Numbered from the stretch's first letter, positions 14,381 through 38,759 are shown. The stretch is DNA of 64,000 bases from an uncultured Candidatus Saccharibacteria bacterium (GCA_964355795.1 CAYHEQ010000001.1:9849-73848), one strand, 5' to 3'. Notes: generated by a model from the sequence alone, not told the origin. A program made the numbers and translations.

Positions 14381-14389
14381 AATATGTAA

Positions 14390-15053: not shown

Positions 15054-15055
15054 TT

Positions 15056-15667: not shown

Positions 15668-15675
15668 ACTTTTGC

Positions 15676-17325: not shown

Positions 17326-17341
17326 AATTTCTCCTTTACTA

Positions 17342-17393: not shown

Positions 17394-17446
17394 CCCTATC
17401 GTAATACAATAACCTCTCTATGTTAAGGGCCACTTTTCAACAGGCT

Positions 17447-18664: not shown

Positions 18665-18791
18665 ATATTAGGTAAATCACAAACTACAAACTCCAAATCA
18701 CAAACCAATAATTAACGGCCTAGATTTTTGTTGTTTGAGATTTTTAACTTGAGATTTGTTTGCAATTTGTTATTTGTAATTTGTTATTTTA

Positions 18792-19871: not shown

Positions 19872-19970
19872 GGTAATAGTTTATAGGTTTTAGTTTGTAG
19901 TGATTAGTGGAATAAAATTACTTAATTTAACCTAAAAACTATAAACTAAAAACTGATATTTTTATTTTTT

Positions 19971-21815
19971 CTACAAGCTCGTTACTCTATACACTTCTTC
20001 CATCGTCGTAATCCCTTGCAATACTTTCAAAACCCCGTCTTGCTTCATAGTAATCATCCCCTCTTTCAAGGCTTGATTTAAGATGTCGGTGGAAGACGAC
20101 CTCTGGATAGTCAATTTCTGCACTTCTTCGGAGATAGGGAGTAATTCATACACGCCCAATCGCCCCTTGTAACCAGAGTTATTGCATTTCTTGCAACCCT
20201 TGCCTTGCAAAATATTTTTCTTTTCAAAAGGGATTTCTTTCTTGTATTCTTCGGGGATAGCTTCATACTCTTTTTTCATATCAGCGATGATGGCTTCGGA
20301 AACTTCCGCTTTTTCCTTACATTCATCACAAACTTTCCTCACCAATCTTTGCGCGATAATAGTATGCAGGGAGGAAGCGATGAGAAATGGTTCCACGCCC
20401 ATATCCACCAAGCGCGGGATAGCGCCGGCAGCGTCATTGGTGTGCAGGGTGGACAAGACTAGATGCCCCGTCAGAGCCGACTGCACCGCCATTTCGGCTG
20501 TTTCTTTGTCGCGAATCTCCCCCACCATAATGATATTGGGGTCTTGGCGCAAAATAGAACGGAGTCCTTGGGCGAAAGAATAACCGATATAGGGTTTCAC
20601 CTGCGATTGGCTAACGCCATTCATCTGGTATTCCACGGGATCTTCTAGAGTGACGATATTAACTCCTTCGGTATTGAGCCGAGCGATGGCCGCGTAAAGA
20701 GTGGTTGATTTACCAGAACCAGTAGGCCCCGTCACGAGCAAGATGCCGTGCGGGATTTGGATAGCTTTGAGCAGGTAATCAAAAGATTTGCCTTGCACGC
20801 CCAGTTGCTCCAATTGAATCACTCCCCCACCTTTGTCCAAGATTCTCATCACCACTTTCTCGCCGTTAGTGGTGGGAAAAGTGGAGATACGCAGGTCAAT
20901 CTCGCGATCAGCGAAGACCACATCAATTCTGCCGTCTTGTGGCACTCTTTGTTCATCAATTTTCAATTTTGCCAAGATTTTGATGCGAGAAACAAAAGCC
21001 GGATGGTCCTTGAGGGGGATACTGGCCACTTGATGCAAGACACCATCAATACGACAACGGATTCTAGTGTCCGCTTTGTCGTTGGGCTCCACGTGAATAT
21101 CGGAAGCGCGAGAAAAAACGGCAAATTTGATAATCGCCGCCACAATTCTTGGGATAGCGGAATTTTTGATTAATTCTTGGAGCTGTTCTGCGGTTTCTAC
21201 CTCTTCCTGCACCAAAGTCGCCAGCGCTGTGTCCGATCGGGGCGCTTCTTCCTTTTTTTCTTCCTGACGAGAGGTCTCTTTTTTTTCTCCAACAGGAGGC
21301 ACTGTCTGCTGGACGATTGGTTGCGCTTCTTCCGTAGCGCCAGTGTCTTTTTCCATTAAGACTGGGTTTTTGTACTGCTCTAAAACTTTTTCTAGTCCCG
21401 CTTGGCTAGCCACATAAGGATCAACGTTGATATTGTTTTTACTCTTAATGAAATCAAAAGCTTTGCGCGTGACAGGATCCCATGGCTTGGAAACAGCTAC
21501 CTTGATCATTTGATCGGAAATTGTCTCAAAAACCACCATATTGTATTTGCGTGCTATCTCTTCCGGAAATTTGGACAAAACAACGAAAGGGATCTTGACC
21601 GCGGAAAGATCAATATAGGGCATCCCATAAATCTCTCCGGCAAATCTGGCGATATCTTCCACATTAACCTTTTCTGACCCAATTAAAGCATCTTCTAAAA
21701 AGGCCCCAGATTGCGCGGCCGTTTCCTTAATCTTTTTGGCGCTTTCTTCATCTAGGAGCTTTTTTCCCAGCGCCAATTCTAAAATGTTTTTTGCATTAAC
21801 TGTCATTGAATGCAT
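19971..21815 (-). CDS. pilB: Type IV pilus assembly ATPase PilB (GspE family)
   Basis: N-terminal T2SSE_N domain, Walker A GPTGSGKSTT, C-terminal tetracysteine CDECK...CKKC. A low-complexity insert makes it 614 aa. Confidence 0.9.
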   Translation of the reverse strand: MHSMTVNAKNILELALGKKLLDEESAKKIKETAAQSGAFLEDALIGSEKVNVEDIARFAGEIYGMPYIDLSAVKIPFVVLSKFPEEIARKYNMVVFETISDQMIKVAVSKPWDPVTRKAFDFIKSKNNINVDPYVASQAGLEKVLEQYKNPVLMEKDTGATEEAQPIVQQTVPPVGEKKETSRQEEKKEEAPRSDTALATLVQEEVETAEQLQELIKNSAIPRIVAAIIKFAVFSRASDIHVEPNDKADTRIRCRIDGVLHQVASIPLKDHPAFVSRIKILAKLKIDEQRVPQDGRIDVVFADREIDLRISTFPTTNGEKVVMRILDKGGGVIQLEQLGVQGKSFDYLLKAIQIPHGILLVTGPTGSGKSTTLYAAIARLNTEGVNIVTLEDPVEYQMNGVSQSQVKPYIGYSFAQGLRSILRQDPNIIMVGEIRDKETAEMAVQSALTGHLVLSTLHTNDAAGAIPRLVDMGVEPFLIASSLHTIIAQRLVRKVCDECKEKAEVSEAIIADMKKEYEAIPEEYKKEIPFEKKNILQGKGCKKCNNSGYKGRLGVYELLPISEEVQKLTIQRSSSTDILNQALKEGMITMKQDGVLKVLQGITTMEEVYRVTSL

Positions 21816-21896: not shown

Positions 21897-22175
21897 CTAA
21901 AGATATGGATTCTCCTTCCCCACATCGGCTGGATCAACCACGACTGGCGTATCAGCAATCTTTTTCAGATCTTTCAGTTCGTTATCCAGAACTTCACTAT
22001 AAGCTTGAGGCACGACTACGGGAGGAAAACTGGTTAATTGTTCTGACTTTGGCGCTGTTTTGATGATAGCGATGACAACGAAAAGCACCATCAAAAAAGC
22101 GGCCACTATACCGATCGTATTGATAGCAGAAAATTCCCCTTTCATTTTTTTCAACCAAAAATTAATCTTTTTCAT
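21897..22175 (-). CDS. Small single-pass membrane protein (pilus-locus associated)
   Basis: 92 aa with one TM segment, located between pilB and pilO-like genes. Confidence 0.4.
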   Translation of the reverse strand: MKKINFWLKKMKGEFSAINTIGIVAAFLMVLFVVIAIIKTAPKSEQLTSFPPVVVPQAYSEVLDNELKDLKKIADTPVVVDPADVGKENPYL

Positions 22176-22930: not shown

Positions 22931-23626
22931 TTATTCTTTACTTCCTCCCACTCCTTCTTGATAAAAAATATTCGCCGTTACAGAGAATCGCAACAAAGGC
23001 TGTCCAATACGGACATCGCCGGAGCCATTAACGCTAATGACTTTGATGTGAAATGGCCTGATATTATCTTCCAGCTCTTTGACGAAATTATAAACGGCAG
23101 AATAATTGCCCGTGATATCAAAGACGATTTCTTGCGTTTTCCAAGTATTGGGAGCCGAAGGCTTGACGCCAACAGCGCCAGCGTTAACCCCCGCTTCTCC
23201 ACTGACAACCGTCCTGTCCGCGCTACTGGCTTCCTTGGGAGTAAAATTGGTGATGAAAAGCGAATTGTCCGAAGCGGCTTTTTCCAGAGTGACCAAAATT
23301 TCAGGAATTTCAATACCTTTCGGCAAAGACTGCTCCACCTCTTCAATGAAATCTTTTTGCTCATCAATACTTTTGGCGAGATTTTCTAATTTAGTTTTCT
23401 TTTCCTCAAGCTTGGCTTTCTCATTAGTATTATTGACAATATTCACCCTGTTTTGCTTGTAGGCGCTGTACAAAGGACCAAAAACTAGATAGCCAAAAAT
23501 ACCCACGATGAGGATGACTAAGAAAATGATCGTGCCGGTTTGATTTTCCCCCGTCCTGAAAAATTCCTCCACTTTTTTGGTGTTGAGAATTTTCTTTTTG
23601 GGCTTTGGTGGTAAAAGATTGTCCAT
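22931..23626 (-). CDS. PilO-like pilus assembly protein
   Basis: Short cytoplasmic N-terminus, one TM segment, a coiled-coil (EKAKLEEKKTKLENLAKSIDEQKDFIEEVEQ), then a C-terminal beta domain. This matches PilO architecture. Confidence 0.55.
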   Translation of the reverse strand: MDNLLPPKPKKKILNTKKVEEFFRTGENQTGTIIFLVILIVGIFGYLVFGPLYSAYKQNRVNIVNNTNEKAKLEEKKTKLENLAKSIDEQKDFIEEVEQSLPKGIEIPEILVTLEKAASDNSLFITNFTPKEASSADRTVVSGEAGVNAGAVGVKPSAPNTWKTQEIVFDITGNYSAVYNFVKELEDNIRPFHIKVISVNGSGDVRIGQPLLRFSVTANIFYQEGVGGSKE

Positions 23627-23711: not shown

Positions 23712-24359
23712 CTATAAATTACTGTCATCCAATATCCCCTGCTCCTGCGCTTTTTTGGCTTCCTCCTCTTTAATAACTGTTCTAGTAATATCCTTCTTTA
23801 AGCGCAAAGAAATGGAAAATTCTACCTTTGATTTACCGATGTCATTGACCGTTAATGAGGAGCTGATCAAGGAAGCCCCTTCAAAGAAAGAGGAATTATT
23901 GAAAGACACCAGCAGCTTGGCCACGCCCTGATAAGTTTCGGCCGAACCATTGATTCTGACAATCCCCGCCTTGTCTATCTCAAATCGAGAAAAAGACACT
24001 GTTTTCGGTTCAACGCTCTCCACTTCTTTGAAAACAACTGACCAGAAAGGCGTTTGTTGCAGAAGAGTCAGAGCGTTCCGATTTCTTTGCGCGATAGACA
24101 GCCCTTGTTGCTCTACGCTCAAAAGGGCGGCGTTGGCCGTCTTCAGCCCAGTAATAGCGTCTTTCAACACTTCATTTTTGTTCTTGGCGGAAACTTCTAG
24201 TCCCGCGAAAAGTAGCGTCCCCAAAACGAAAATACCCACAAAAATAGCGGAAAAGACCAGCGCCATCTTGCGATTTTGCTTATCTTTTTCGCTCTCCACG
24301 AAACGAGCCGTCGGCTCTCCTACTTCATTGGTGATTTTGGAAATATCAATATCTAACAT
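23712..24359 (-). CDS. PilN-like pilus assembly protein
   Basis: Cytoplasmic N-terminal segment, one TM segment, coiled-coil, and a periplasmic domain, as in PilN. It lies adjacent to the PilO-like gene. Confidence 0.55.
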   Translation of the reverse strand: MLDIDISKITNEVGEPTARFVESEKDKQNRKMALVFSAIFVGIFVLGTLLFAGLEVSAKNKNEVLKDAITGLKTANAALLSVEQQGLSIAQRNRNALTLLQQTPFWSVVFKEVESVEPKTVSFSRFEIDKAGIVRINGSAETYQGVAKLLVSFNNSSFFEGASLISSSLTVNDIGKSKVEFSISLRLKKDITRTVIKEEEAKKAQEQGILDDSNL

Positions 24360-24487: not shown

Positions 24488-24844
24488 TCAAATTTTTGTA
24501 TTTAATATCCTATTGGGCTTAAGATGGCTATTTCTAAAATTAACTATCATCCCCAACTTCAAATTATTAATTTCTAGGTATCTTTTTACTTGAAAATAAT
24601 CTTCTTTGTCCGCAAAATTTTTTGCTTTGCATTCTACTACTATTTTATCTTCTATGAGAAAATCCATTCTATTCCCACTGCCATCATTTAATTCTCTTTT
24701 ATAAGCAACACCTTTATTCTGCAGTTCCTTCTCTATTTCATCACAATATTGTTTTTCTTTACAGAATCGCCCTAGTCTATTTTGAACTGCAAAAAATATC
24801 CCATTTATTTTGTAAGACAATTCCGGATAAATTACATCCTTCAT
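24488..24844 (-). CDS. GxxExxY-family protein (PD-(D/E)XK superfamily)
   Basis: INGIFFAVQNRLGRFCKEKQYCDEIEKEL ... IVVECKAKNF ... LKLGMIVNF fits the GxxExxY family profile. Confidence 0.65.
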   Translation of the reverse strand: MKDVIYPELSYKINGIFFAVQNRLGRFCKEKQYCDEIEKELQNKGVAYKRELNDGSGNRMDFLIEDKIVVECKAKNFADKEDYFQVKRYLEINNLKLGMIVNFRNSHLKPNRILNTKI

Positions 24845-24910: not shown

Positions 24911-27076
24911 TTACTGCCTGGCTTTGAATACTTCTTTGGCAAATCCCGGTGGCGGGGACAAGACTACTCGCGGATCGTATTGGAAATCTTCGGCTGGTTG
25001 CCAATCCAGATATTTAGGATCGTTAGGCTTTATTGAACCCTTGCAAATTGGTGGCAAGGCGTTATCGCAAGACCAGAGTAGCTCTTTCGGACCAATGTAA
25101 TTGCGATAAAGTTGGAAAGCTTCTGATCGCGAAGAAACATTCCACCACCCGCTAGCGATGACCACTCCATGAATGACTAATTGTTTGTCATAAGTCTCTC
25201 CGCCACAAGCAGCGGGGGTAATAGCGCAAGAACCGCTAATAAAGCTCCCCTTTTGACCGGTATTGGCTTTGTCAGAATAGATGAAGAATACGCCCTCCAG
25301 CCTTCCTACCCTCGGACTGACATTGACATTGCCATTTTTGACAATGAAGCCCACCATATCTTTGTTTTTGTTCTCGTATTGCAGACTGTCGTTAATAGAA
25401 AGATCGCCATCAACAACAACCGTTCCTCTGCCACGCAGGGTCATCGGCGAACCGCTATTGTTACCTATCGTCAAACCGTCACTATAATAAAGAGCGCCTC
25501 CTTCAGGGATATTGGTGGGATTGAGGTCTATTGTCGCGCTAGTGAGACTACCTTTGCCATAACTAGTTTTGGCTATTTTGGCGCCATTAATTAGTTTCGT
25601 CCGACTTTTTTCTATAATTCCGCAAGCCGAATTTTCTTGACAGACTTTGTCTTCATCTAGACCAAAACTGGAAGGACTATTAGAGCTGATGCCGTATGCG
25701 CCCACCGTCCAATCGCTCGCTGATTTTGATTGAGACGCTATATTGCCACCAGAACCGATGATGTAGAGAACGCTAGAAGGATTTCTCAAGTTCACTCCCT
25801 TGCGACCAAAAACGCTACCCCCGGTGGATTCTTTGAGGAAAGAATAAGTAACGATGTCTATGTCTGTTTTGGTAGTTTGCTCTGTCCCCGTCGTAAAGGT
25901 CGCGGTATTGGTAATTACTGAATTGGCTGTCACCTCTTTGGCAATAGTTACTTCTACTTCAAAATGATAATTGGTGGCGTGGACCAAAGAATTGATCGTT
26001 ATGGACAAAGAATTAGTCCCCGCAGTAGCGACGCTATAACTAGCGGAAATGATGTTAGCGCTTTTTACCCTGATACCCTTGATGGCAGACGCTGGCGTAA
26101 CCGTATCGTTGATGGTCAAAGTTCCTCCATCGGTAATATTATCCACCGCTACATCAAGATCGTAAGTGGTGGTGAAATCAATGCCCGGATTAATGAGGAG
26201 AGAAGTATCGTCGCTTTTACTCGCTGTTATCAGAGCCGACATCGGACTGATGAGCAAGACTTCCGCCGCCGAGTATTGCCAATGAATCTTGTCTTCAGAA
26301 ATAGCGGCTACTCCTTTGACTAAATACATGGCGGGATCAACCAAGGAGTTGCCCTTGTTGTCAAAAACTAGCGCTTCCGCCGTAGAACGATCAATATTTT
26401 TGAGATCGGACATTTTGTAAAAAGTGAGCGCGAGATTAGTCGTAGAATTGGCAAAAACAGTAAATCTCCTTCCCTCTTTCGGTTGCGGAACATAATATTG
26501 AACGCCTCCGATGGTTATCGTATCAGATCCGCCACTATCCACGGAGATGAAGTGTGTGCCGACTTTCAGATTAGAAATATTAAAATTCCCACTAGTAGGC
26601 GTGGCCGTTACCCCATCTATCAAAAGAGGGGCGATGATCGGACCGCTGTCGCTATTTTTCATCTCAATGCTGGCCGATCCCAAACCGATTGCTTCCGTAG
26701 CTGTCAACATTACTGTCTTGGAAATTTCCGCGCTAGCACCATTGATGCAAAGTAATTTGTAGATGGCCGAACCTTGCGGAACAAAAGTTTTCACTACTCC
26801 AAGAGGAGCGCCCCAACTACTGACGATAGTGGCGCCTAAGTCATCTATAATCCTGCATGAAGTAGCGCTGGAAACAGTGTAATAGAGAGTTATTGGGTCC
26901 ATCGGGTTTTTGATAGTGACATTTTTGAATGGCAGACCGCTAATACCATCAAAAACAAATTTCGTGATCGTCGGCTCGCCGACCGCCCGCGCGGAAGTGG
27001 CGCCAAAAATAATCCCCGCTACCAACGCTGGGAGAAAAACTAGCCCGAAAATAATGGATGAATATCTTTTGTTCAT
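24911..27076 (-). CDS. Large secreted protein (721 aa), possible adhesin
   Basis: N-terminal signal peptide (IIFGLVFLPALVAGIIFGATSARA). Ser/Thr/Gly/Asn-rich beta-type composition. No catalytic motifs. Confidence 0.65.
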   Translation of the reverse strand: MNKRYSSIIFGLVFLPALVAGIIFGATSARAVGEPTITKFVFDGISGLPFKNVTIKNPMDPITLYYTVSSATSCRIIDDLGATIVSSWGAPLGVVKTFVPQGSAIYKLLCINGASAEISKTVMLTATEAIGLGSASIEMKNSDSGPIIAPLLIDGVTATPTSGNFNISNLKVGTHFISVDSGGSDTITIGGVQYYVPQPKEGRRFTVFANSTTNLALTFYKMSDLKNIDRSTAEALVFDNKGNSLVDPAMYLVKGVAAISEDKIHWQYSAAEVLLISPMSALITASKSDDTSLLINPGIDFTTTYDLDVAVDNITDGGTLTINDTVTPASAIKGIRVKSANIISASYSVATAGTNSLSITINSLVHATNYHFEVEVTIAKEVTANSVITNTATFTTGTEQTTKTDIDIVTYSFLKESTGGSVFGRKGVNLRNPSSVLYIIGSGGNIASQSKSASDWTVGAYGISSNSPSSFGLDEDKVCQENSACGIIEKSRTKLINGAKIAKTSYGKGSLTSATIDLNPTNIPEGGALYYSDGLTIGNNSGSPMTLRGRGTVVVDGDLSINDSLQYENKNKDMVGFIVKNGNVNVSPRVGRLEGVFFIYSDKANTGQKGSFISGSCAITPAACGGETYDKQLVIHGVVIASGWWNVSSRSEAFQLYRNYIGPKELLWSCDNALPPICKGSIKPNDPKYLDWQPAEDFQYDPRVVLSPPPGFAKEVFKARQ

Positions 27077-27103
27077 TTGAATTTTGACTTTATGGTTCCT
27101 CGT

Positions 27104-27140
27104 CCGAGGTTCGACCTTAGCTTCTAAATTTCTCCGAAGT
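27104..27140. repeat. Hairpin repeat family, half copy
   Basis: ccgaggttcgaccttagcttctaaatttctccgaagtctc; the right arm is absent. Confidence 0.6.
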
Positions 27141-27146
27141 CTCCGT

Positions 27147-27191
27147 CCGAGGTTCGACCTTAACTTCTAAACTTCTCCAAGGTCGAACCTC
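27147..27191. repeat. Hairpin repeat family copy
   Basis: ccgaggttcgaccttaacttctaaacttctccaaggtcgaacctc. Confidence 0.8.
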
Positions 27192-27261
27192 TTTACCCCT
27201 GTTTTTCTGTTTTTTTTAATTTTATTCAATCTGCAATCTGAAATCTAGAATCTGCAATTCT

Positions 27262-28017
27262 CTATGGCGCCTTTACCTTGAATTTAACCGAACTCTCCCC
27301 CGGTGTGGCGGTATATGAATTCCAAAGCAATTCGTTGCTGGTAGACGAAAGGGTAAAACCTGTTCCATCGACTATCGTAGCCTTAGTTTTATCAAACATG
27401 CTTGGCAGGACGTATCTCAAATTAACAATCTTGTCCACCGACCCCTGATTGGTAACGCGCAAAGTATAGGTGATGAATCCACCCTTGAAAGATGTCGCAT
27501 TACCGCCTCCCGCGTCTCCCTCCGCTTCCACATAAACCAAGACGCCTTTGGGATAATTGTAAGAGTCGGTATAAGTATATTCTACAGGTTCAATGACGCC
27601 TCCTTGAGGGATAAGATTGACGCTAAAATTGGCCGTTAAAGTAGTACTGCCTTGACCAAAAGTGAAGGTCGCAGAACTAGCAAGGGTATTAGAGAGATTG
27701 CCATAAATAGGGCTAGAAGTAAAAGTCCAACCAGAAAAAACATAACCAGAATTAGCAGTAGCCTTAATTTCTTTGGTAGAACCACCCACTCCTGTTGTTG
27801 CTCCGCCAGTTATAGCTACCGTCCCGCCAGCCACTGGATTGACGACAAGAGTCAACGTGTAATTAGCCACACAAAGATTGGGCATTATGGCGCAGAGACT
27901 CGTCGCCACTGGTGGCACCATGGCCGATACCCCACCGGTCAAAAGCAAAATCAACCCTGCCGCCATACCAGCAAAAATTGTCTTCCTCCGCAAATTATTT
28001 ATGCTCTTTTTAATCAT
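27262..28017 (-). CDS. Secreted protein with InlB B-repeat (Listeria-Bacteroides repeat) domain
   Basis: Signal peptide, then GYVFSGWTFTSSPIYGNLS ... ATFTFGQGSTTLTANF. The same module, with similar DNA, occurs in the 860-aa protein. Confidence 0.65.
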   Translation of the reverse strand: MIKKSINNLRRKTIFAGMAAGLILLLTGGVSAMVPPVATSLCAIMPNLCVANYTLTLVVNPVAGGTVAITGGATTGVGGSTKEIKATANSGYVFSGWTFTSSPIYGNLSNTLASSATFTFGQGSTTLTANFSVNLIPQGGVIEPVEYTYTDSYNYPKGVLVYVEAEGDAGGGNATSFKGGFITYTLRVTNQGSVDKIVNLRYVLPSMFDKTKATIVDGTGFTLSSTSNELLWNSYTATPGESSVKFKVKAP

Positions 28018-28037
28018 TTTAATTGTTAGTTTCGCGT

Positions 28038-28101
28038 CCGAGGTTCAACCTTAGCTCCTAAACTTCTCCACTTGTCCGCCTCTGGAGGAAGGTTGAACCT
28101 C
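28038..28101. repeat. Hairpin repeat family copy (T-to-A variant, long loop)
   Basis: ccgaggttcaaccttagctcctaaacttctccacttgtccgcctctggaggaaggttgaacctc. Confidence 0.7.
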
Positions 28102-28123
28102 TTAATTCTTGTTTGCGCTTTCC

Positions 28124-28654
28124 TTACGGCGCTATCGTCCCGGTAACTGTCCATTGATTTGGTATTTGAACATAAGCAGTTGCGTTTGCCTTCTCATTAC
28201 ATCCCGAACCTGATACTATTTGGCCACCAACTGCTGAATATAGCCCCTGAACAGCTGCGCAATTTTGACCAGCAGCGACAAAAGTGGCAGGAGTATTAAA
28301 GCTAGTAAATGCGCCATTTGTTGCCCCGGCAATAACATTGCCACTCCAACTCCCACTAGGCACTGTCCATGTTTCAGTTATGGTAGTTGTCGAGCCAGTA
28401 ACTCCCCCTGTAACTGTCCATTCGGCTGGCCCTAACGATATCGTCGCCGCTGTATTACCTGGGCCCGAATTGGGTATAGGAATATTCCTCCACGTCTTCA
28501 CAATCCAAGTGAAAGAATACCCCGTTGCCGCTTGGGCTCTCTGATTTTGTGTTCCCCAAGCCACTACCGCGACGACGATAAGAACGATGCCAATGATAAA
28601 AAGCGCTAGGCTTTTTTTGTCCAAAGTTTTTGTCATATTTTCCTCCTCGCACAC
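28124..28654 (-). CDS. Secreted protein sharing a conserved N-terminal leader with the 860-aa protein
   Basis: MTKTLDKKSLALFIIGIVLIVVAVVAWGTQNQRAQAA against MIKTLDKKKLAIFVIGIALIIAAVMAWGTQNQKAQAA. The leader is about 80% identical and is also conserved at the DNA level. Confidence 0.6.
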   Translation of the reverse strand: MCEEENMTKTLDKKSLALFIIGIVLIVVAVVAWGTQNQRAQAATGYSFTWIVKTWRNIPIPNSGPGNTAATISLGPAEWTVTGGVTGSTTTITETWTVPSGSWSGNVIAGATNGAFTSFNTPATFVAAGQNCAAVQGLYSAVGGQIVSGSGCNEKANATAYVQIPNQWTVTGTIAP

Positions 28655-28741
28655 TTTAATTTTAATATAAATTCCTTATCCGACTTCTAATTTTTTATTT
28701 TTTTAATTTTCTTGTCCCGCGAAACCTTTGGCGAAGTGGGA

Positions 28742-29020
28742 TTACTTTTTTAGCCCTTCCCCCGCTATAGGTCCCGGCATTTGACTCGTTTCAAAGCCAT
28801 AAGTCGTTTCCCCCTTCTTCTTCGCCTCCTCTATCGCCAGATTTCTTTTAATCATATCCGGCGTGCCGGCTATCGGTGACTTACTTCGTAACCGTATCTC
28901 GTTATACGCCACCACTCCCAGCAAAACGACTCCGACCGCAAGAGTGATGATAGCAATATGGCGAAAAGTTATTTCTTTCATACTAAATTTTAATTTCTCC
29001 AATCCGAGGCTCAACCTCAA
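28742..29020 (-). CDS. Small membrane protein
   Basis: The N-terminal 13 codons lie inside a hairpin repeat. The likely real start is MKEITFRHIAIITLAVGVVLLGVVA at about 28981. Confidence 0.4.
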   Translation of the reverse strand: MRLSLGLEKLKFSMKEITFRHIAIITLAVGVVLLGVVAYNEIRLRSKSPIAGTPDMIKRNLAIEEAKKKGETTYGFETSQMPGPIAGEGLKK

Positions 29021-29043
29021 AGGATGCCCAGAGGTTGAACCTC
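29004..29043. repeat. Hairpin repeat family copy (loop variant B, opposite orientation)
   Basis: ccgaggctcaacctcaaaggatgcccagaggttgaacctc. Confidence 0.75.
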
Positions 29044-29065
29044 TTTACCCTAGATGGTTTCCTGT

Positions 29066-29110
29066 CCGAGGTTCAACCTTAGCTTCCAAACTTCCCCAAG
29101 GTTGAACCTC
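29066..29110. repeat. Hairpin repeat family copy
   Basis: ccgaggttcaaccttagcttccaaacttccccaaggttgaacctc. Confidence 0.8.
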
Positions 29111-29173
29111 TGACCAATAATTTTTGTCTTCCGCGTAAGTCTGCGTTAAGTCTGCGTCCGTCCGCGGTCGGCG

Positions 29174-29830
29174 CTACTGCGCGACTCCCTGTCCCAATCC
29201 ATCATACAATTTATAATCGTCACTACAAGTGGTCAAGATTTCTGCCGTGGATTTGTGAGCGTAATTGGTTTGCGTTTTGTCAATCACCGTCCCGATGCCG
29301 TAAAGCAATTTAGCCGATAGTGGGTCGCAAACGGACTTAATTATGAATTCGGCAATCGCTGTATTGCCACCATATGTCGCCGTAACTATTATTTTCTTGC
29401 CAGGCACAGAATCGGGACCCAATTTGATGAAAGCTCTAGAATAAGAATCAATAGAAGATACTTCAGGGTTAGCCGTCAAAGAAGTCGTGCTCCCACCAGG
29501 TGATTTATAAAAATTAGCATCGAACTCAACATCTGTTTTCGGCAAAAAAGAAGCTCCTGTAACCTGCGAAATATCCCATTCATACGTGACTGTTGGCCCT
29601 TTAATTGGCAGTCCGGCACCAAGGTTGTCTGTCGTCTGCACTACTAGCTGTAATACTTGCCCCGGCTGAACATCACAACTACTAGGATCATTACACCCGA
29701 CGACAGTCGCGCTAACACTTTCGATGGCAAAGGGAGTCCTCCCATTATTTTTGAAAGCAAAAACTCCTGCGACCATAATGACAATGACCACAACAAACAC
29801 TCCTATTTTTTTTATTCTGTTTTTTATCAT
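29174..29830 (-). CDS. Membrane-anchored secreted protein
   Basis: Signal anchor IGVFVVVIVIMVAGVFAF. Contains Cys pairs. No known domain. Confidence 0.5.
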   Translation of the reverse strand: MIKNRIKKIGVFVVVIVIMVAGVFAFKNNGRTPFAIESVSATVVGCNDPSSCDVQPGQVLQLVVQTTDNLGAGLPIKGPTVTYEWDISQVTGASFLPKTDVEFDANFYKSPGGSTTSLTANPEVSSIDSYSRAFIKLGPDSVPGKKIIVTATYGGNTAIAEFIIKSVCDPLSAKLLYGIGTVIDKTQTNYAHKSTAEILTTCSDDYKLYDGLGQGVAQ

Positions 29831-29868
29831 AATATTCTCTGCCTTTATCTAAAAATCTAAAACCTAAT

Positions 29869-30768
29869 TTATTTTACTGGCACCAATTTTATCGGATTAT
29901 TATACTGATCCAACAAACTTTGCAAAAATGGATCTTGAGGATTTTGCGCCAAACCATCTTTTAAGACCAGCTTCGCTCCCGCAATATCTTTCTGACTATG
30001 CAACATAGTGGCCAAACCATAATAAGCGGCCACTAATTTCGCGTCCAGCCTGATAGCTTCTCGATATTGTTTCTCGGCCGCCTCGTATTTTTCCTGACTA
30101 CTCAAGACATTAGCAAAATTGTTGTGGTAAATAGCGACAGAAGGCTCTTTGGCCACTACTTGCCCCCAAGTTTCTACAGCCTTGGTGAGATTACCAACAT
30201 TTTGGTAAAGTGAAGCTAATGTCGCCAAATCCTCCGCGCTGACAGCTGATTTTTCCAAAATCGTCGTCGCCTCCACATACCTCTTCAGTCTTTCTTCTGG
30301 TGTCAGGGTTCGGCCACTATCTGCGTCCACACCCATCCCCGCTTCTTGGATAGTCTGTTGAAGAGTTTTTTGCGTATCAGAACCAATGATATTTTCCCTG
30401 ATAGTCGTGAGGTAGAAAGAGCCCGCAATGCCAGCTATGATGATAACCAGTAAAGTTGCCCCCAAGAAAATCCCTATTCTCCTGCGGTATCGCGGTATCT
30501 GCAAACGCGAGATATCCACCACCCGCACCGTCCCGGGCTCGGCAAAATTATGCACCAAAATCTCCCCTTGCCGAAGCTTACCAACAACCACTTTTTTGTT
30601 TTTTCGCGCACCTTGATTTTTTCTAATAATCTTGCGCGACCCTCCGAAACTTGCTACTCGCGAGACAGGAATAGTAGTTCCGTGAGCGAGTAAGCGTGAA
30701 GGACGGGTTGGTTTTACTACCTTTTTTGGCTTCAGTTTCTCTTTTTGTTTGCGTTTTTTGATTGACAT
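29869..30768 (-). CDS. TPR-repeat membrane protein
   Basis: Basic N-terminus, one TM segment (IGIFLGATLLVIIIAGIAGSF), then TPR-like repeats (AIYHNNFANVLSSQEKYEAAEKQYREAIRLD). It is paralogous to 34002..34730 and 38073..38759. Confidence 0.7.
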   Translation of the reverse strand: MSIKKRKQKEKLKPKKVVKPTRPSRLLAHGTTIPVSRVASFGGSRKIIRKNQGARKNKKVVVGKLRQGEILVHNFAEPGTVRVVDISRLQIPRYRRRIGIFLGATLLVIIIAGIAGSFYLTTIRENIIGSDTQKTLQQTIQEAGMGVDADSGRTLTPEERLKRYVEATTILEKSAVSAEDLATLASLYQNVGNLTKAVETWGQVVAKEPSVAIYHNNFANVLSSQEKYEAAEKQYREAIRLDAKLVAAYYGLATMLHSQKDIAGAKLVLKDGLAQNPQDPFLQSLLDQYNNPIKLVPVK

Positions 30769-30784
30769 ATATTTCTTTATTTTT

Positions 30785-30866
30785 TATTTTTCCCGACGCA
30801 CTATATTTTTTAATATAATGAAGTCGGGATCCCGATTTCGCGATAGCGAACATCGGGACTTATTTT
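30785..30866. repeat. About 82-bp conserved intergenic element, copy 2 of 2, abutting the TPR gene start
   Basis: About 95% identical to 4116..4196. Contains the TCGGGATCCCGA palindrome and the AT-rich TATATTAAAAAATATA box. It ends about 20 bp before the ATG at 30768. Confidence 0.8.
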
Positions 30867-30872
30867 CTTGAC

Positions 30873-31265
30873 TTATCGTAAAACTGGAGAAGCTTCCATC
30901 GATTTTATTTCTTTAATGTCTTTAGAATTAAAAATTTTCTTCTCTCCAAGCTTATCCACTACTTTTTCTAATTTTTCGTCCCTTTTCCTCATCATAACAA
31001 TCAAATCGCTCTTCAAATTAATCATTTTGTCTGTCATGAAACTCTTGGTGACCATTTGATTCCTTACGCTATCTATATCGGCTTGCAGATCAGTTTTGAC
31101 GGCTTGCAGATCAGTTTTGACACTCTGCAGGTCAGTTTTTACACCCTGAAGATCGGTTTTTATTTCCTTAATATCCCCATGAATACCGCCAAATTGATCA
31201 GTAAGGAAATCCATGAATTTCTCATCATTCATGATGCTAGATTGTTTGGTATTTTCTCCTGTCAT
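30873..31265 (-). CDS. Small coiled-coil protein with 7-aa tandem repeats (KTDLQxV x4)
   Basis: IKTDLQGVKTDLQSVKTDLQAVKTDLQA is encoded by a 4 x 21-bp tandem repeat. Confidence 0.5.
   Translation of the reverse strand: MTGENTKQSSIMNDEKFMDFLTDQFGGIHGDIKEIKTDLQGVKTDLQSVKTDLQAVKTDLQADIDSVRNQMVTKSFMTDKMINLKSDLIVMMRKRDEKLEKVVDKLGEKKIFNSKDIKEIKSMEASPVLR
31080..31163. repeat. 4 x 21-bp tandem repeat (coding)
   Basis: ggcttgcagatcagttttgac x2, followed by two diverged units. Confidence 0.85.
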
Positions 31266-31406
31266 TTTATTTTCTTAATTTTCGCACACCATAATATTTT
31301 TACAATAGTCTGTGCGACCCTCCGAAACGCAACCTATTTGCAAATTTCTGATATTCAGAATATTGCAAGAGGTTAAGTGAAGGATGGGTTTATTTTTTTA
31401 GCCCCA

Positions 31407-33989
31407 CTATTTCACCGGATTCAATATGTGCTTCGGCACAGTGATTGTTACGGCCTTAGTGTTATCGGTAATAATGACTGCGGTAGCGCCACTAGTGGCC
31501 GTGGCCACCAGATTCACTGCGTAAGTGCTGTTGGATTTTAATATACTGAAACTGCAATTGGTCGTAACCGAAGAACAATTGGGAAGACTGGTTGGCAAAA
31601 TGACAGTCCCATTTTCTTTAACTTGCCAATTATAGCCAGAGGTCACCGTCCCTCCCACTGCTACCATCTCTGGCTTCACCGTTACCGTATCCCCTACTCG
31701 GAGAGAGCCGGAAATAGTCCAGTCGCCAGTAGTTTCTTGAGTGGGAGTCACCGAAGCGCCAGCGTTGACGATAGCGCCATCGGTAATGATGTTCGCTCCC
31801 GCTCTGCCCACATCCGGCTTGATGCTCAAAGAGGCCGAAGAGGGAGCGGGAGGATTAAGCCCTGCTGTTTTAGTCACTGTTCCCATCGCCCCGCGACTGT
31901 CTGTTACGGTCAAAGTAAAGGAATAAAGTCCTCCTCCATTAGTATACTCGGGATATGTATAAGCGAGGTCTTTTTTGGTAAAAAGAAGGAATGGAGAAGG
32001 ATCGTCAGAGATTTTTTGGGAATCAGAGGAAGTGTAAGTATAGATATAAGCGGGGTCCCAAGACTTTGTTACCTTCCATGCCCAACTCGTAATTGTATCC
32101 CCATCGGGATCGGTTGATTGATCGTAATATTTGAAATCCATCGTCGTCCCGAGCTGCGTGCCATCAAACTTCGCCACAGGAGGGCTATTCACAGATGTAT
32201 AACTACACACAAAACCAATTGTTCCGCCAGCAGTAAGTGTTCTTATTGATGGAGGAATAAATGTGTATCCCGTCTTAGCCGGACAGGTGGCGGTATAAGA
32301 GCCAATTGGAGCAGTTGTTGAAACAGCAACGGCTACATTCGGCGTAACCACCGTCCCCGTATAGGTTGTCGTAGCAGGACTGGGACCCTTAACTGTGATA
32401 GTTGTATCAGGAAGAGTGGAGTTGATGTTGATGGTGCCAGGTAATACTTTGTCCACCGTAATTGTTTTCGTCGCTGTGTCACTAAACGCCCCTCGACTAT
32501 CCTGAACCATAAGAGACGCTGTATATGTCCCTACGGACGAATACTTATGGAGAGGTTTTTTTTCAACACTATCAATTATCCCGTCATTATTAAAATCCCA
32601 AAACCAACCAGTAATACCGTCGCCATCAGGATCGGTGGAGGTATCTGTAAATTGCACTGAAAGTGGTACAGAGCCAGAAATGGGGCTGGCAACAAACCTG
32701 ACTAAAGGAGATTTATTGGGAAAGGACAATCCTCCGCAACCATCCGTTCTAGATATAACAACAGTACCGTCACCAGCGACTTCTCTAGCGCCTCCTGTGC
32801 CAATGCCACTTCCACCAATACCGCCGTTAGCAGTAACTGTCTTAAATCTCACATCTCTTCCGGCTTCAAAAACTTGCTCGCCACTCCATGTCCCGTCTTC
32901 TTTCTTCGATAATATCTTTATTCTCCCACCACCACCAGCATAAGGTGGAAAATAGCTACCAGCTACCCCGTCGCCACCATTAGCGCTAATCATACCTTCG
33001 TGATTGAAGCTATTTGTAACAATACAAATAGATCCACCAGAGCCACCACCGCCTATTCGTCCACCATTACCTATCTCACCTATCTTGCCATTAGCAGAGA
33101 TACTACCATCTTTATCTATGATGATTTTGTTAGCAGATATTACTATGAGACCACCACCGCTACCGCCAGTATAATCACCATTATAGCCATAAGATCCTAC
33201 TCCCATGCCACCTCCACCTCCACTGCCCCACTGGTCTGGATTATTCTTATCGCCATAAGTATATGACCCAACATCCGCTCCTAAACCTCCATAGCCTCCG
33301 CCCGAACCGGCATATACATAAATAGAGTTAGTAAATGACCAACCTCCACCTCCAGGACCATAGCCATACTGCTTACCAGTGCCACCACTATACCCAAATC
33401 CATCTGCGGTTATTTTACCGCCAGAGTTAATTATCAGTTCTTTATTGATGATGAGTTGCATACTACCAACATCGCCGGGAGATCTTGTCTTTTGGGTTAA
33501 AACACCGTCGTTTATTATAGTTAAGCTATTGAAATAATGCTCTCCATCAATTTGTACCGTTGAACCATTAATAACAACATCTTTCTTGTCGTACTGAACA
33601 TTAGTTGATGAGATAACTCCCGATGGAAATACGGCGCTAATAGGCACAAAATTAGCCATCAAAGCAGTGTTGCCTTGACCAAAAGTGAAGGTCGCAGTAC
33701 TAGTGACCTTGCTAGAAATATTGCCATAAATAGGGTTAGAAGTAAAAGTCCAACCATAAAATTTATATCCCAGATTCGCAGTGGCGGTAATGGTCCTGGT
33801 GGAATTTTCATTCGTCCCTCCGCCAATCACCACGCCATACTCGCTCGGACCAGCCGTCAATGTGAGAGTATAAGTCGTTGCGGCTTGGGCTTTTTGGTTT
33901 TGCGTACCCCAAGCCATTACTGCGGCAATAATTAGCGCAATTCCGATGACGAAAATAGCTAACTTCTTTTTGTCTAAAGTTTTTATCAT
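31407..33989 (-). CDS. Large secreted adhesin-like protein (860 aa) with InlB B-repeat, Gly-rich region and two PKD domains
   Basis: Conserved leader MIKTLDKKKLAIF...AQAA, B-repeat GYKFYGWTFTSNPIYG, and long GGSGGG tracts. PKD motifs WFWDFNNDG and STDPDGDTITSWAW are present. Confidence 0.75.
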   Translation of the reverse strand: MIKTLDKKKLAIFVIGIALIIAAVMAWGTQNQKAQAATTYTLTLTAGPSEYGVVIGGGTNENSTRTITATANLGYKFYGWTFTSNPIYGNISSKVTSTATFTFGQGNTALMANFVPISAVFPSGVISSTNVQYDKKDVVINGSTVQIDGEHYFNSLTIINDGVLTQKTRSPGDVGSMQLIINKELIINSGGKITADGFGYSGGTGKQYGYGPGGGGWSFTNSIYVYAGSGGGYGGLGADVGSYTYGDKNNPDQWGSGGGGGMGVGSYGYNGDYTGGSGGGLIVISANKIIIDKDGSISANGKIGEIGNGGRIGGGGSGGSICIVTNSFNHEGMISANGGDGVAGSYFPPYAGGGGRIKILSKKEDGTWSGEQVFEAGRDVRFKTVTANGGIGGSGIGTGGAREVAGDGTVVISRTDGCGGLSFPNKSPLVRFVASPISGSVPLSVQFTDTSTDPDGDGITGWFWDFNNDGIIDSVEKKPLHKYSSVGTYTASLMVQDSRGAFSDTATKTITVDKVLPGTININSTLPDTTITVKGPSPATTTYTGTVVTPNVAVAVSTTAPIGSYTATCPAKTGYTFIPPSIRTLTAGGTIGFVCSYTSVNSPPVAKFDGTQLGTTMDFKYYDQSTDPDGDTITSWAWKVTKSWDPAYIYTYTSSDSQKISDDPSPFLLFTKKDLAYTYPEYTNGGGLYSFTLTVTDSRGAMGTVTKTAGLNPPAPSSASLSIKPDVGRAGANIITDGAIVNAGASVTPTQETTGDWTISGSLRVGDTVTVKPEMVAVGGTVTSGYNWQVKENGTVILPTSLPNCSSVTTNCSFSILKSNSTYAVNLVATATSGATAVIITDNTKAVTITVPKHILNPVK

Positions 33990-34001
33990 TTTTTTCTTGT
34001 T

Positions 34002-34730
34002 TTATCCTCTTCTGTATGTCATCAATATCTGCTTCAACATCTCATCTTTTGGAATTTGAGCTGTTCCCTCTTCTAAAACTTTTATCGCTTCTGCTCTATT
34101 ATTTTCGAAATCTCTCAAAAGTACCGCTAGATTAACATAGGTGGCAGAAAAATGTGGGTCAATGGTGATGGCTTCGCGATAATGCTTTTTTGCTTCTTCG
34201 TATTTTTTTTCACTACGCAAAACATTGCCCAGATTATTATGCAAAATAGCGTCTTGAGGAGTTACTTTTACGGCTTGTGAGAAAAACTCCTCGGCTTTAC
34301 CCAAATCTCCAAGATTATAATAAGAAACGGCAAGTTTCTGTAAAACATCCTTGTTGTTAGGCTGTGTATTGATAACTTTTTCTAATTCTTCCACGGTTTC
34401 TTTGTATTTTTTTGTTTGCATTTCTGCGCTTATTGCCTGATCGCCACTTTTACCCATCGTTGCCTCCCTGTACGCATCCAGCCCATTCGCTAACCATTCC
34501 TGCGCTTTCACATCGCGCCAAATACGATATTTATTCAACAGAACATTCGCCAACAAAGATCCCCCATAAACCACAACTATAAGAATAATTATACTAATTA
34601 TAATTTTTGCTTTTTTATTAAAAATCTTCCTCTTTCTCTCCTCCCAATTTTTGTTTTTCTTTTTCATAAGTGAAATTTCTGTATCTGTAGTATATATTTC
34701 CTCATTTAGAGGTTCGACCTTAGTTTCCAA
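34002..34730 (-). CDS. TPR-repeat membrane protein (paralog)
   Basis: The first about 11 codons of the ORF are a hairpin repeat, so the start is likely MKKKNKNW at about 34667. One TM segment then TPR repeats (ILHNNLGNVLRSEKKYEEAKKHYREAITID). Confidence 0.65.
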   Translation of the reverse strand: METKVEPLNEEIYTTDTEISLMKKKNKNWEERKRKIFNKKAKIIISIIILIVVVYGGSLLANVLLNKYRIWRDVKAQEWLANGLDAYREATMGKSGDQAISAEMQTKKYKETVEELEKVINTQPNNKDVLQKLAVSYYNLGDLGKAEEFFSQAVKVTPQDAILHNNLGNVLRSEKKYEEAKKHYREAITIDPHFSATYVNLAVLLRDFENNRAEAIKVLEEGTAQIPKDEMLKQILMTYRRG

Positions 34731-34781: not shown

Positions 34782-35168
34782 CTATCCTATTGCTCCTACT
34801 TTGTGCATACTGCTTGCTTCTTCTTCACTCAAAATCCTTTTTCTTGCCAGAATACTTGTCAAAGTGTGTAGTTTTTGCGCTATTCTCCCCTCACTTTGCC
34901 TCACTCTTTTATCCGTCCAATCTTTGTTATTTCCTTCTGATTGCCTAATTTCTTGTTTTAATTCTTTTTCCATCGGTTCCAAAAAATTAACATTGAATTT
35001 AGCTAATTGATCCTTTACTACATCTTCAACTGAATCCTTGAATCTTTGACCCTCAAATATATTCTCTACGGCGTTCTTGAATTTCTCGCCAGCAAAAGAA
35101 TTCTCAATAACCCCCGTTACGATTTCCTTAATTTCCTCTCTGGTTGTGGTAATCTTTTTTTCTGACAT
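34782..35168 (-). CDS. Hypothetical protein
   Basis: 128-aa acidic/basic ORF with no known motif. Confidence 0.45.
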   Translation of the reverse strand: MSEKKITTTREEIKEIVTGVIENSFAGEKFKNAVENIFEGQRFKDSVEDVVKDQLAKFNVNFLEPMEKELKQEIRQSEGNNKDWTDKRVRQSEGRIAQKLHTLTSILARKRILSEEEASSMHKVGAIG

Positions 35169-35543: not shown

Positions 35544-36095
35544 CTACGGCGCCAAAGTGTCCAAGACGATGAACGAATCGCCAGATTTGGCGGAATAGTT
35601 GCACCAGATCATATCCCCGGAATAGCCCGTTACTATGGCAGTGGCGCAACCCCCCGTTGTTGGCGCAGAAGCGGTAGTGCCATCAGAGCCAGCCTTCATA
35701 CCGCTATATTTGAATCCTGTCGGTGTGGAGAATTTGACATCTGTGGACTTGGCTAAACTTTCAGGATTGTTGACGGTTAAAGTGAATTTGACTGTATCGC
35801 CCGCTTTCGCCGTCGCCGTGTTGTTTCGCGCAGATACTGGCGCGATGTTTTCTGCCTTCGTATGCACCGAAACACCTTGATAATTGAAATTGTAGCCGAC
35901 ATCAATAGGTTGTCTATCGGCCGCGAATGTTCCCAGTTTGAATCCTCCCAAGGCCACGCCAGCCAAAAGCAAAAGGCCTACTACATATATAGTAGCCTTT
36001 CTGTTGGAAAGTTTTTTGGAAAAACCCTTGAGAGTGGAGGCTCTTTTGATGCGATTGCTCCTGCGCACGATTTTTTCAAAATTGAAAGATAACAT
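35544..36095 (-). CDS. Secreted/membrane-anchored protein with Thr/Ala-rich beta domain
   Basis: Signal anchor IYVVGLLLLAGVALGGF. DUF11-like composition. Confidence 0.5.
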   Translation of the reverse strand: MLSFNFEKIVRRSNRIKRASTLKGFSKKLSNRKATIYVVGLLLLAGVALGGFKLGTFAADRQPIDVGYNFNYQGVSVHTKAENIAPVSARNNTATAKAGDTVKFTLTVNNPESLAKSTDVKFSTPTGFKYSGMKAGSDGTTASAPTTGGCATAIVTGYSGDMIWCNYSAKSGDSFIVLDTLAP

Positions 36096-38072: not shown

Positions 38073-38759
38073 TTATTCCACCCGCAATTCCGCCATTTTT
38101 TCCGTCGCTTCTTTAATCAATTGCTGATAATCCTCATTATCTTTTTCCAAAACTAAAGCTTTCTTGTAGCTATCCAAAGCCTTGTCATACTGCCGTAAAG
38201 CCGCGTAAGATAACCCCAGATTGATATAGCGATGAGGCACCAAACCATTGAGCTGAATAGATCTCTGATACGCCTCTATCGCTTCCACGTATCGCCCTTG
38301 ATTGAAAAGCGCCAAGCCAAGATTGTTGTGAATCAGATCATTGTTTTTGTCATACTTCAAAGCCGTCCTGAAAGCTTCTTTGGCGTCAGCGAAATTTTCC
38401 TGTTCTATATATATAACGCCCAATTTGTTGTAAAGCTTAGGATTTTTCGGATCTTTCTCAATAGTAGAAATTAAAATCTTTTCCGCCTCTGTATGATTTT
38501 TCTGATCGATCAATTCTCCCACTTTTTCCAACACTTCGTCGGCAGAATTGCTTTTCTGTTTGACAAATCTCGGGATGGACTTGCTGGTTTTTTTACTCTT
38601 TTTACCGTTGGTTTCTTCGGAAGCTTCGTATCTATTGAGCTTCGCCTCGCCATTACTATTGCCCCGCCTTTTCAAAAGCTCCTCGGAAACTTCTGGCATT
38701 TTGCGAGCCACAACAAAAACCAACGCCGCCAATGCTACAACTAGAATGATGATTTCCAT
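38073..38759 (-). CDS. TPR-repeat membrane protein (paralog)
   Basis: N-terminal TM segment (IIILVVALAALVFVV), then three or four TPR repeats (LYNKLGVIYIEQENFADAKEAFRTALKYD ...). Confidence 0.65.
   Translation of the reverse strand: MEIIILVVALAALVFVVARKMPEVSEELLKRRGNSNGEAKLNRYEASEETNGKKSKKTSKSIPRFVKQKSNSADEVLEKVGELIDQKNHTEAEKILISTIEKDPKNPKLYNKLGVIYIEQENFADAKEAFRTALKYDKNNDLIHNNLGLALFNQGRYVEAIEAYQRSIQLNGLVPHRYINLGLSYAALRQYDKALDSYKKALVLEKDNEDYQQLIKEATEKMAELRVE

Follow-up and report, generated by a model that had tools for sequence, protein, structure and literature searches.

A pilus-linked array of tetratricopeptide repeat and exported-protein genes in a groundwater member of the Patescibacteria

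Small tetratricopeptide repeat (TPR) proteins are encoded with the pilus genes of diderm type IV pilus (T4P) and Tad systems, where PilF/PilW, Tgl and TadD carry a TPR domain outside the cytoplasm and are thought to aid the assembly of other pilus-system proteins. Known proteins of the PilF/PilW/Tgl type are outer-membrane lipoproteins that have about six TPRs and pilot a secretin. Among the ultra-small Patescibacteria, whose cells appear to lack an outer membrane and a secretin, the type IV pilus is the organelle of host contact with the strongest support. Here we describe an array of genes for two TPR membrane proteins (TPR1 and TPR2) and a series of exported, adhesin-like proteins that lies next to T4P genes in a 64,000-nucleotide stretch of DNA from an uncultured Candidatus Saccharibacteria bacterium (GCA_964355795.1, CAYHEQ010000001.1:9849-73848; hereafter the window). 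Through an exact protein match, the sequence traces to the Hainich groundwater 0.1 µm metagenome, and its nearest relatives are metagenome-assembled genomes of Patescibacteria. We are confident that the array is a conserved, pilus-linked module.

TPR1 and TPR2 resemble PilF/PilW, Tgl and TadD in being small TPR proteins that are encoded with pilus genes and whose TPR domain is predicted to lie outside the cytoplasm. They are unlike PilF/PilW in having an N-terminal membrane helix, no lipobox and about three TPRs, and no secretin domain is found in the window or in annotated relatives. The best NCBIfam match of TPR2 is type_IV_pilW (TIGR02521) at 63.5 bits, and TPR1 reaches 35.9 bits, both far under the 154-bit cut-off. 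Score, repeat number and the missing lipobox and secretin rule out membership of TPR1 and TPR2 in the PilF/PilW family.

The exported protein encoded closest to pilN, s721, bears comparison with two other pilus proteins. ComZ of Thermus thermophilus (PDB 6qvi) is a pilus-tip protein with a solenoid of ice-binding-protein fold (PMC6561018). ComZ has this solenoid embedded in a pilin-like domain and forms a pair with the minor pilin PilA2; s721, in contrast, has a Sec-type N-terminus, no pilin domain, extra immunoglobulin-like (Ig-like) stalk domains, a gene next to pilN and no sequence similarity to ComZ. Like PilY1-type adhesins, s721 is a non-pilin exported by Sec, its gene belongs to a pilus cluster, and its N-terminal part varies while the C-terminal domain is conserved. 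This likeness concerns a possible working mode alone, and no homology between PilY1 and s721 was detected. The C-terminal domain of PilY1 is a beta-propeller and its gene accompanies those of minor pilins, whereas s721 has a predicted beta-solenoid and a gene before pilN, and neither Pfam nor fold comparison matched it to a beta-propeller.

CLIPPER domains build the stalks of fibrillar adhesins, and some DUF11 domains lack the intramolecular isopeptide triad of Lys, Asn and catalytic Asp/Glu (PMC12617251). Compared with CnaA/CnaB/CLIPPER fibrillar adhesins and sortase pilins, the proteins of the array have no LPXTG signal, DUF11 matches under the cut-off and single domains in place of long tandem stalks. 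An LPDTG-bearing DUF11 protein of the sortase-adhesin kind does occur elsewhere in the window (1976-3979).

Gene order in the window and in related genomes

The open reading frames are present at the coordinates of the initial annotation, and every array gene is on the minus strand. In transcription order, from high to low coordinates, the array and the pilus genes that adjoin it are as follows (lengths in amino acids, aa).

35544..36095, minus: s183, exported, 183 aa, with a DUF11/CLIPPER-like domain and a membrane helix at residues 34-52
34782..35168, minus: cc128, 128 aa, ahead of the distal TPR gene, same family as cc130, no membrane helix
34002..34667, minus: TPR2, the distal TPR protein, 221 aa (Pfam TPR_1, 66.6 bits)
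31407..33989, minus: s860, exported modular protein, 860 aa (Pfam Flg_new_2, PKD_4 and Big_9)
30873..31265, minus: cc130, coiled-coil protein of 130 aa ahead of the proximal TPR gene, identified from its translation
29869..30768, minus: TPR1, the pilN-proximal TPR protein, 299 aa (Pfam TPR_16, 42.7 bits)
29174..29830, minus: s218, exported Ig-like protein with conserved cysteines, encoded after the proximal TPR gene
28742..28981, minus: s92, small single-pass membrane protein, 79 aa from the ATG at 28981
28124..28636, minus: s176, exported, 170 aa, with its start at 28636
27262..28017, minus: s251, exported, an InlB B-repeat followed by a CLIPPER/DUF11-like C-terminal domain (Pfam Flg_new_2, 43.4 bits)
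24911..27076, minus: s721, exported, 721 aa, of the family found directly before pilN
23712..24359, minus: pilN (Pfam PilN, 33.1 bits, cut-off 22.8; 35-49% identity to relatives)
22931..23626, minus: pilO (Pfam PilO, 33.8 bits, cut-off 22; 34-46% identity to relatives)
21897..22175, minus: p92, small single-pass membrane protein, conserved at its C-terminus (..GKENPY. tail)

Ahead of s183 come a holB-like gene, a third TPR gene (TPR3) and a tRNA island with a GIY-YIG gene and rpmG. From s183 the order is cc128, TPR2, s860, cc130, TPR1, s218, s92, s176, s251 and s721, then a small PD-(D/E)XK_3 gene, pilN, pilO, a gene for a 229-aa protein, p92, pilB, pilT and pilC, and finally a pilin gene, the prepilin peptidase gene and three more pilin genes. 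Because the genes sit on the minus strand, the array is transcriptionally upstream of pilN, pilO and pilB, and not downstream of the type IV pilus genes as first described. The unit is also wider than the interval 24911-34730 to which it had been assigned, beginning at 36095 and running down through the pilus genes, and its groups hold non-secreted genes as well (cc128 at 34782-35168, cc130 at 30873-31265 and the PD-(D/E)XK gene at 24488-24844).

For comparison we used the neighbourhoods of s721 relatives, of one PilB relative and of one s218 relative, and scored the relatives' loci (L numbers below) with family hidden Markov models (HMMs) from eight genomes. Relatives with enough upstream sequence share a conserved order: a CLIPPER-like protein, TPR, s218, optionally s92/s176, a CLIPPER-tailed protein and s721, followed by pilN, pilO, a protein of about 85 aa (p92), pilB and pilT. 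This arrangement recurs in about ten related genomes. Its most constant pairing is that of pilN with the gene for the predicted solenoid protein (s721 family), which stands immediately ahead of it on 13 contigs; these include short forms of 170-200 aa, in L098 and L090, made up only of a membrane helix and the predicted solenoid core. Two short solenoid proteins were encoded on contigs too short to inform on their gene context. The TPR gene stands immediately before the s218-family gene in eight of nine genomes, with gaps of -4 to 83 nt, the exception being L083, in which a 1191-aa protein comes between them. A p92 homolog lies between pilO and pilB in every relative that covers this stretch. 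The most compact arrangement is that of L087, with gaps of -4 to 70 nt all the way from the CLIPPER-like gene to pilT, which suggests that this string is one operon; genes overlap or almost abut in both L087 and L095.

The window, L003, L088, L093 and L095 each have two TPR genes; in these five genomes the distal TPR gene is followed by a B-repeat or PKD protein of 2-2.5 kb and the proximal one by s218. The large protein comes right after the distal TPR gene in L003, L093 and L095, and in the window a gap of 12 nt separates TPR2 from s860. Mobile-looking small genes (PDDEXK_3, 23S_rRNA_IVP, GIY-YIG and integrase) occupy differing sites in the cluster and leave the order unbroken.

Compared with its relatives, the window shows 63-73% identity in PilB, 29-40% in s721, 32-41% in s218 and 26-46% in TPR. 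To judge by these values, the module has been kept across a long divergence and evolves like extracellular pilus proteins, at about the rate of PilN/PilO. A PilB-anchored genome scan covered 80 loci and returned one close relative (L003), and a metagenome scan with 6 sequences returned 6 loci, of which 2 were informative. HMMs of the module families had no match in 78 PilB loci of other lineages; as far as sampled, the module is confined to one uncultivated lineage.

Proteins of the array

Pfam bears out the TPR domains that had been placed at 29869-30768, 34002-34730 and 38073-38759, with the start of the second gene corrected from 34730 to the ATG at 34667 by an exact database match (P0001), which makes TPR2 221 aa long. 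Topology was predicted by the positive-inside rule, and repeats were counted from the family alignment. TPR2 has a basic N-tail, a single membrane helix at residues 22-40 and about three TPRs that are predicted to be extracellular; TPR1 has a strongly basic N-terminal extension of 97 aa, a membrane helix at residues 98-116 and, again, about three TPRs predicted to be extracellular. At 40% identity over 154 aa (E 1e-25), the two sequences mark TPR1 and TPR2 as true paralogs. Searches with TPR2 alone and with a nine-member TPR profile returned almost only generic long TPR proteins, and the true TPR1/TPR2 family members among them were only those already found by synteny. The two form a specific, rare family. 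In a neighbour-joining tree, built on a short alignment without bootstrap support, the proximal TPRs of the window, L003, L088 and L093 group together. This grouping is suggestive of an old duplication after which each paralog kept its downstream neighbour (positional orthology).

The proposal that a TPR membrane protein heads each group of secreted-protein genes holds for TPR1 and TPR2 and fails for the third TPR gene.

38073..38759, minus: TPR3, with a TPR domain, of a separate, well-conserved TPR family (29% identity over 100 aa to TPR2)

The membrane helix of TPR3 occupies residues 1-19 and has basic residues behind it, so that an N-out/C-in topology with a cytoplasmic four-TPR domain is predicted. 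Downstream of TPR3 lie tRNAs and rpmG and no secreted-protein genes, and TPR3 orthologs stand ahead of the tRNA/rpmG island in L093 (392-1102, 58% identity) and L095 (252-959). Low identity, opposite topology and the downstream neighbours rule out TPR3 as a third instance of a TPR gene paired with secreted-protein genes.

In s721 a variable N-terminal part leads into Ig-like domains and then into a conserved C-terminal core, about 250 aa long and closing with PPPGF. The family is rare: a search of 1.84 billion cluster representatives found 42 relatives at E<=1e-3, of which about 19 are full-length. An AlphaFold2 model from 18 sequences has a mean predicted local distance difference test (pLDDT) score of 65, with the Ig-like domains (about 130-410) at 70-85 and residues 480-680 at 85-95. 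It depicts Ig-like stalk domains and a putative beta-solenoid, reminiscent of that in ice-binding proteins and in ComZ, the tip pilin of Thermus. In fold comparison the Ig-like domains match CLIPPER and Gram-positive pilins, and the ice-binding-protein/ComZ matches would belong to the C-terminal domain, which is modelled as a single long helix followed by many short strands. The s721 profile found nothing meaningful among PDB sequences, and a Pfam scan of 18 family members gave no ice-binding/DUF3494 match at E<=0.1 and no family in common. The Pfam N_methyl motif is absent from s721, whose N-terminus reads MNKRYSSIIFGLVFLPALVAGIIFGATSARA, unlike the true pilins of the window, which do match N_methyl.

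All of the 'secreted' proteins of the array have hydrophobic N-termini preceded by K/R; pilin-like leaders on them were ruled out from the sequences. Two of these proteins carry the InlB B-repeat that had been noticed as common to 27262..28017 and 31407..33989. It scores above the Pfam cut-off as a divergent form of PF18998 (43.4 bits in s251 and 33.8 bits in s860, threshold 23.6), includes the motif GY.F.GWTFTS.PIYGN in both proteins and is conserved at the DNA level, where 27625-27768 and 33648-33791 are 79.9% identical over 144 nt (E 3e-31). Proteins of L093 (779 aa) and L095 (683 aa) contain PF18998 as well. The parts of s860 are, in order, a leader of the s176 type, the B-repeat, a glycine-rich beta-helix region, a PKD domain (PKD_4, PF18911, residues 425-512, 48.9 bits against a Pfam threshold of 27) and further Ig-like domains. 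The shared N-terminal leader reported earlier is likewise real, at 74% DNA identity over 136 nt between 28509-28644 (s176) and 33862-33997 (s860) and 72-74% peptide identity over 35-43 aa. The s176 orthologs of L086 and L087 bear the same ...QNQKAKAAT.Y leader. It is native to the s176 family, and the copy in s860 suggests an exchange between the two genes. Considered as a SipW/TasA-type signal peptide, the common leader gave no NCBIfam match.

Recombination of modules, which the initial annotation had also proposed, extends beyond the window: the B-repeat, the glycine-rich beta-helix, PKD and CLIPPER-like tails occur in differing combinations across genomes. The glycine-rich beta-helix, for example, is joined to B-repeat and PKD in the window and to a CLIPPER-like tail in L003, and relatives carry IgGFc_binding, Peptidase_S74 or PQQ modules. 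Between s251 and s183 the C-terminal domains are distantly paralogous, and their DUF11/CLIPPER matches stay under the threshold. For s251 the DUF11 score is 15.9 bits (PF01345, cut-off 24.6); s183 reaches 21.0 bits for Pfam DUF11 (cut-off 24.6) and 22.5 bits for NCBIfam B_ant_repeat (cut-off 24). The s251-type tail is kept in the gene before s721 in L003, L083, L086, L087, L088, L091, L093 and L095, and L092 has a clip-family open reading frame upstream of its s721 gene with a small NYN-domain gene between. The first conserved gene of the module, s183, comes after rpmG and tRNA-Trp and has orthologs at the equivalent position in L083, L088 and L093. The s92 and s176 genes form a conserved pair, with s92 homologs immediately ahead of the s176 homolog in L086 and L087. 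A structure model of the s218 family from 4 sequences is weak (pLDDT 60), and its only fold matches are generic Ig-like ones.

A family of about 120-146 aa without a hydrophobic segment lies ahead of TPR or adhesin genes in the window, L088 (2777-3184 and 4075-4515), L095 (4138-4506) and L100. The homologs of cc128 in L088 are 135 and 146 aa long (E 2e-26), and the family HMM also matches L095 and L100. The 146-aa protein of L088 is 50% identical to cc130, which contains a tandem repeat of 3.7 copies of 21 nt (7 aa, VKTDLQx) at 31084-31160.

At the C-termini of all module proteins there is no LPXTG plus membrane helix. CLIPPER-like-tailed proteins of the window and its relatives nearly always stop right after the last strand, at ..[KT].[AV]P, and the last residues of the large PKD or B-repeat proteins are ..VP[KR]I....; neither of these conserved termini matches a known sorting signal. 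The LPDTG protein mentioned above (1976-3979, minus strand, 667 aa) has a signal peptide, three DUF11/CLIPPER repeats (66 bits) and the LPDTG, membrane helix and basic tail of a classical sortase substrate. No TPR gene adjoins it.

Possible roles at the pilus

Recurrence of the same pattern in about ten related genomes excludes a chance origin of the array, and the module, being kept directly before the pilus machinery genes in those genomes, probably works together with the pilus. We read the array as an expanded form of a lineage-specific extracellular accessory or adhesin module of the T4P operon in one lineage of the Patescibacteria (candidate phyla radiation); taken whole, with the mechanism below, this reading strikes us as an evenly balanced call. 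Once exported by Sec, the module proteins would come together outside the cell in a complex seated at or on the pilus machine. Docking and assembly would fall to the parts that stay constant and act as connectors (TPR ectodomain, s218, CLIPPER-like tails, s721 solenoid), and the shuffled heads (B-repeat, PKD and glycine-rich beta-helix) would provide surfaces that adhere to a host or partner. The TPR domain, anchored in the membrane, may hold or chaperone the protein encoded after it, possibly by binding short terminal peptides as other three-TPR domains do. An old duplication would have left the distal TPR paired with the large B-repeat/PKD protein and the proximal TPR with s218, as in the window and four relatives. 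A specific docking or chaperone role of the TPR proteins is a tentative proposal, to which we give somewhat less than even credence. That the TPR proteins assist assembly or secretion, and that the system attaches to a host, are likewise proposals drawn from gene linkage and domain content.

A small, well-delimited group of families that always accompanies pilN and pilO (TPR anchor, s218, CLIPPER-tailed proteins, solenoid protein) supplies candidates for the missing extracellular parts of the pilus and for host-choosing adhesins, and shuffled heads on constant docking parts would explain a fast change of binding specificity. The families themselves have no Pfam model, and the kind to which they would belong, T4P accessory or adhesin genes, is already known. 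A bolder form of the proposal, which we consider unlikely, is that an undescribed extracellular sub-complex replaces the PilP/PilQ/pilotin layer, with the TPR anchor docking Sec-exported Ig-like proteins and the ComZ-like solenoid linking the machine or fibre to exchangeable adhesin heads that grip the host.

Several observations weigh against an accessory or adhesin module. Intergenic gaps in the window reach 185 nt, and 551 nt around the inserted gene, and they contain hairpin repeats; with gaps this large and repeat-bearing, co-transcription here is not certain. A scan for consensus sigma-70 promoters and terminators gave no enrichment (32 promoter-like sites against 33 expected). The pairing of TPR and secreted-protein genes, clear for s218, is looser for the large protein, which is separated from the distal TPR gene by two small genes in L088 and has no TPR gene ahead of it in L086 and L100. 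The likeness of TPR1 and TPR2 to pilus TPR proteins is generic and under the cut-off, and the s721 fold matches come from a model of modest mean pLDDT, without sequence support. No module protein has a pilin-type leader or an LPXTG signal to hold it on the cell. The view of the array as a surface system acting with the pilus is borne out in part, in the conserved linkage of TPR, exported-protein and pilus genes; TPR proteins are no general partner of secreted proteins, given the LPDTG protein at 1976-3979.

The chief alternative is that TPR, s218, the CLIPPER-tailed protein, the s721 solenoid and p92 are structural parts of the pilus machine and not adhesins. Together they would span the envelope as an alignment or conduit complex and, in a cell that has no outer membrane, stand in for PilP, PilQ and the pilotin, with the adhesin-like heads as secondary additions. 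The constant families evolve at the rate of PilN/PilO, solenoid-only short forms still precede pilN, the loci encode no PilM, PilP or PilQ, and the minimal operon of L087 lacks a large modular protein, all of which this explanation would accommodate. Yet the CLIPPER, B-repeat, PKD and beta-helix domains typify surface adhesins, the N-terminal heads differ strongly among genomes and no fold matches a known machine component, and we regard a purely structural role as a serious candidate that is nonetheless unlikely. The two explanations overlap, and they are not separable with the present data. A looser association, in which independent surface adhesins or envelope proteins are merely co-located and co-regulated with the pilus and the TPR proteins have an unrelated role (for example, regulation or envelope maintenance), would fit the ordinary Sec-type N-termini, the generic nature of TPR domains as interaction modules and the LPDTG protein, which needs no TPR neighbour. 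We find it improbable, as the TPR–s218 and s721–pilN adjacencies have held across deep divergence despite repeated insertions and genes overlap or abut in L087 and L095.

Some type IV pilus systems secrete proteins, and the co-location of cargo-like genes with a pilB/pilC/pilin machine could also point to a piston like that of type II secretion, in which the TPR proteins retain the Sec-exported neighbours as cargo at the membrane until the machine drives them across the wall or S-layer. The locus encodes the retraction ATPase PilT and four pilins, as is typical of true pili, no outer membrane or secretin is evident that would create an obvious need for a second secretion step, and no cargo signal was identified, which together make such a piston very improbable. 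Juxtaposition of common TPR and secreted-protein genes without functional meaning might be expected from the abundance of TPR proteins, of which the unrelated TPR3 is a nearby example; the shared order in about ten genomes and the specific, rare family of TPR1 and TPR2 effectively refute it.

Pilus genes, inserted genes and repeats

The remaining pilus genes and the two genes that interrupt the conserved order are listed below.

24488..24844, minus: small PD-(D/E)XK_3 gene between s721 and pilN (Pfam PDDEXK_3, 67.8 bits)
22196-22885, minus: membrane-anchored protein of 229 aa between pilO and p92
19971-21815, minus: pilB
18792-19871, minus: pilT
17447-18664, minus: pilC
16882-17325, minus: pilin
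15799-16632, minus: prepilin peptidase
15056-15667, minus: pilin
14589-15053, minus: pilin
13745-14380, minus: pilin

This cluster spans 13745..21815. Its pilins and prepilin peptidase were assigned by Pfam N_methyl, T2SSG and Peptidase_A24, and pilB, pilT and pilC from translation, mutual paralogy, tblastn to pilus loci and orthology to genes annotated as T2SSE/T2SSF. No PilM, PilP or secretin adjoins pilN/pilO in the window or in annotated relative loci, and pilM is absent from all 64 kb of the window. PilM is reported to be well conserved in Patescibacteria (PMC12206443) and may be encoded elsewhere in the genome. The most conserved part of PilN is its N-terminus (M.DID.SKI..E.GEP.ARF.E.E; window, L003, L083, L086, L087 and L088). 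The terminal residues are ..LP[VS]L in five of the six PilN proteins and ..GK[EQS]NPY.. in p92 proteins; from their sequences, these terminal peptides are possible short docking peptides. The 229-aa protein had no homolog in any relative's locus and no Pfam match, and it is particular to this genome.

Relatives lack a PD-(D/E)XK_3 gene at the s721–pilN junction; in L086 there is one at another point of the cluster, and other relatives have 23S_rRNA_IVP genes at assorted places. The PD-(D/E)XK_3 gene appears to be an inserted cassette outside the conserved module. It is flanked by repeat blocks rich in GCGAAT/ATTCGCAT (24406-24495 and 24857-24913), which also lie near tRNA-Trp and upstream of TPR3 (36310-36411 and 38771-38915) and include an array of 19-nt tandem repeats at 36338-36408.

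A palindromic intergenic repeat has the stem GAGGTTCRACCTT / AAGGTYGAACCTC (13-15 bp), a loop of 13-30 nt and then GGAC or GGAT. It occurs in 9 copies against 0 expected, in array gaps and after the pilin genes (27077-27220, 28018-28123, 28990-29135, a degenerate site at 34709-34772, and 13160-13300), with no T-run behind it. The repeat is genome-specific and was not found in any relative's locus.

Within the tRNA island (37131-37713), the 3' half of tRNA-Tyr is duplicated, 37131-37184 being 98% identical to 37238-37291, and a copy resembling its 5' half lies at 37649-37684 (75% identical). A perfect direct repeat of 43 nt (37178-37220 and 37612-37654) brackets the GIY-YIG gene and the intact tRNA-Tyr, and the arrangement looks as though a mobile GIY-YIG cassette had split a tRNA gene. 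At 287-1829 (minus strand), a gene for a restriction endonuclease of MvaI/BcnI type overlaps an N4/N6 DNA methyltransferase gene, forming a type II restriction-modification pair.

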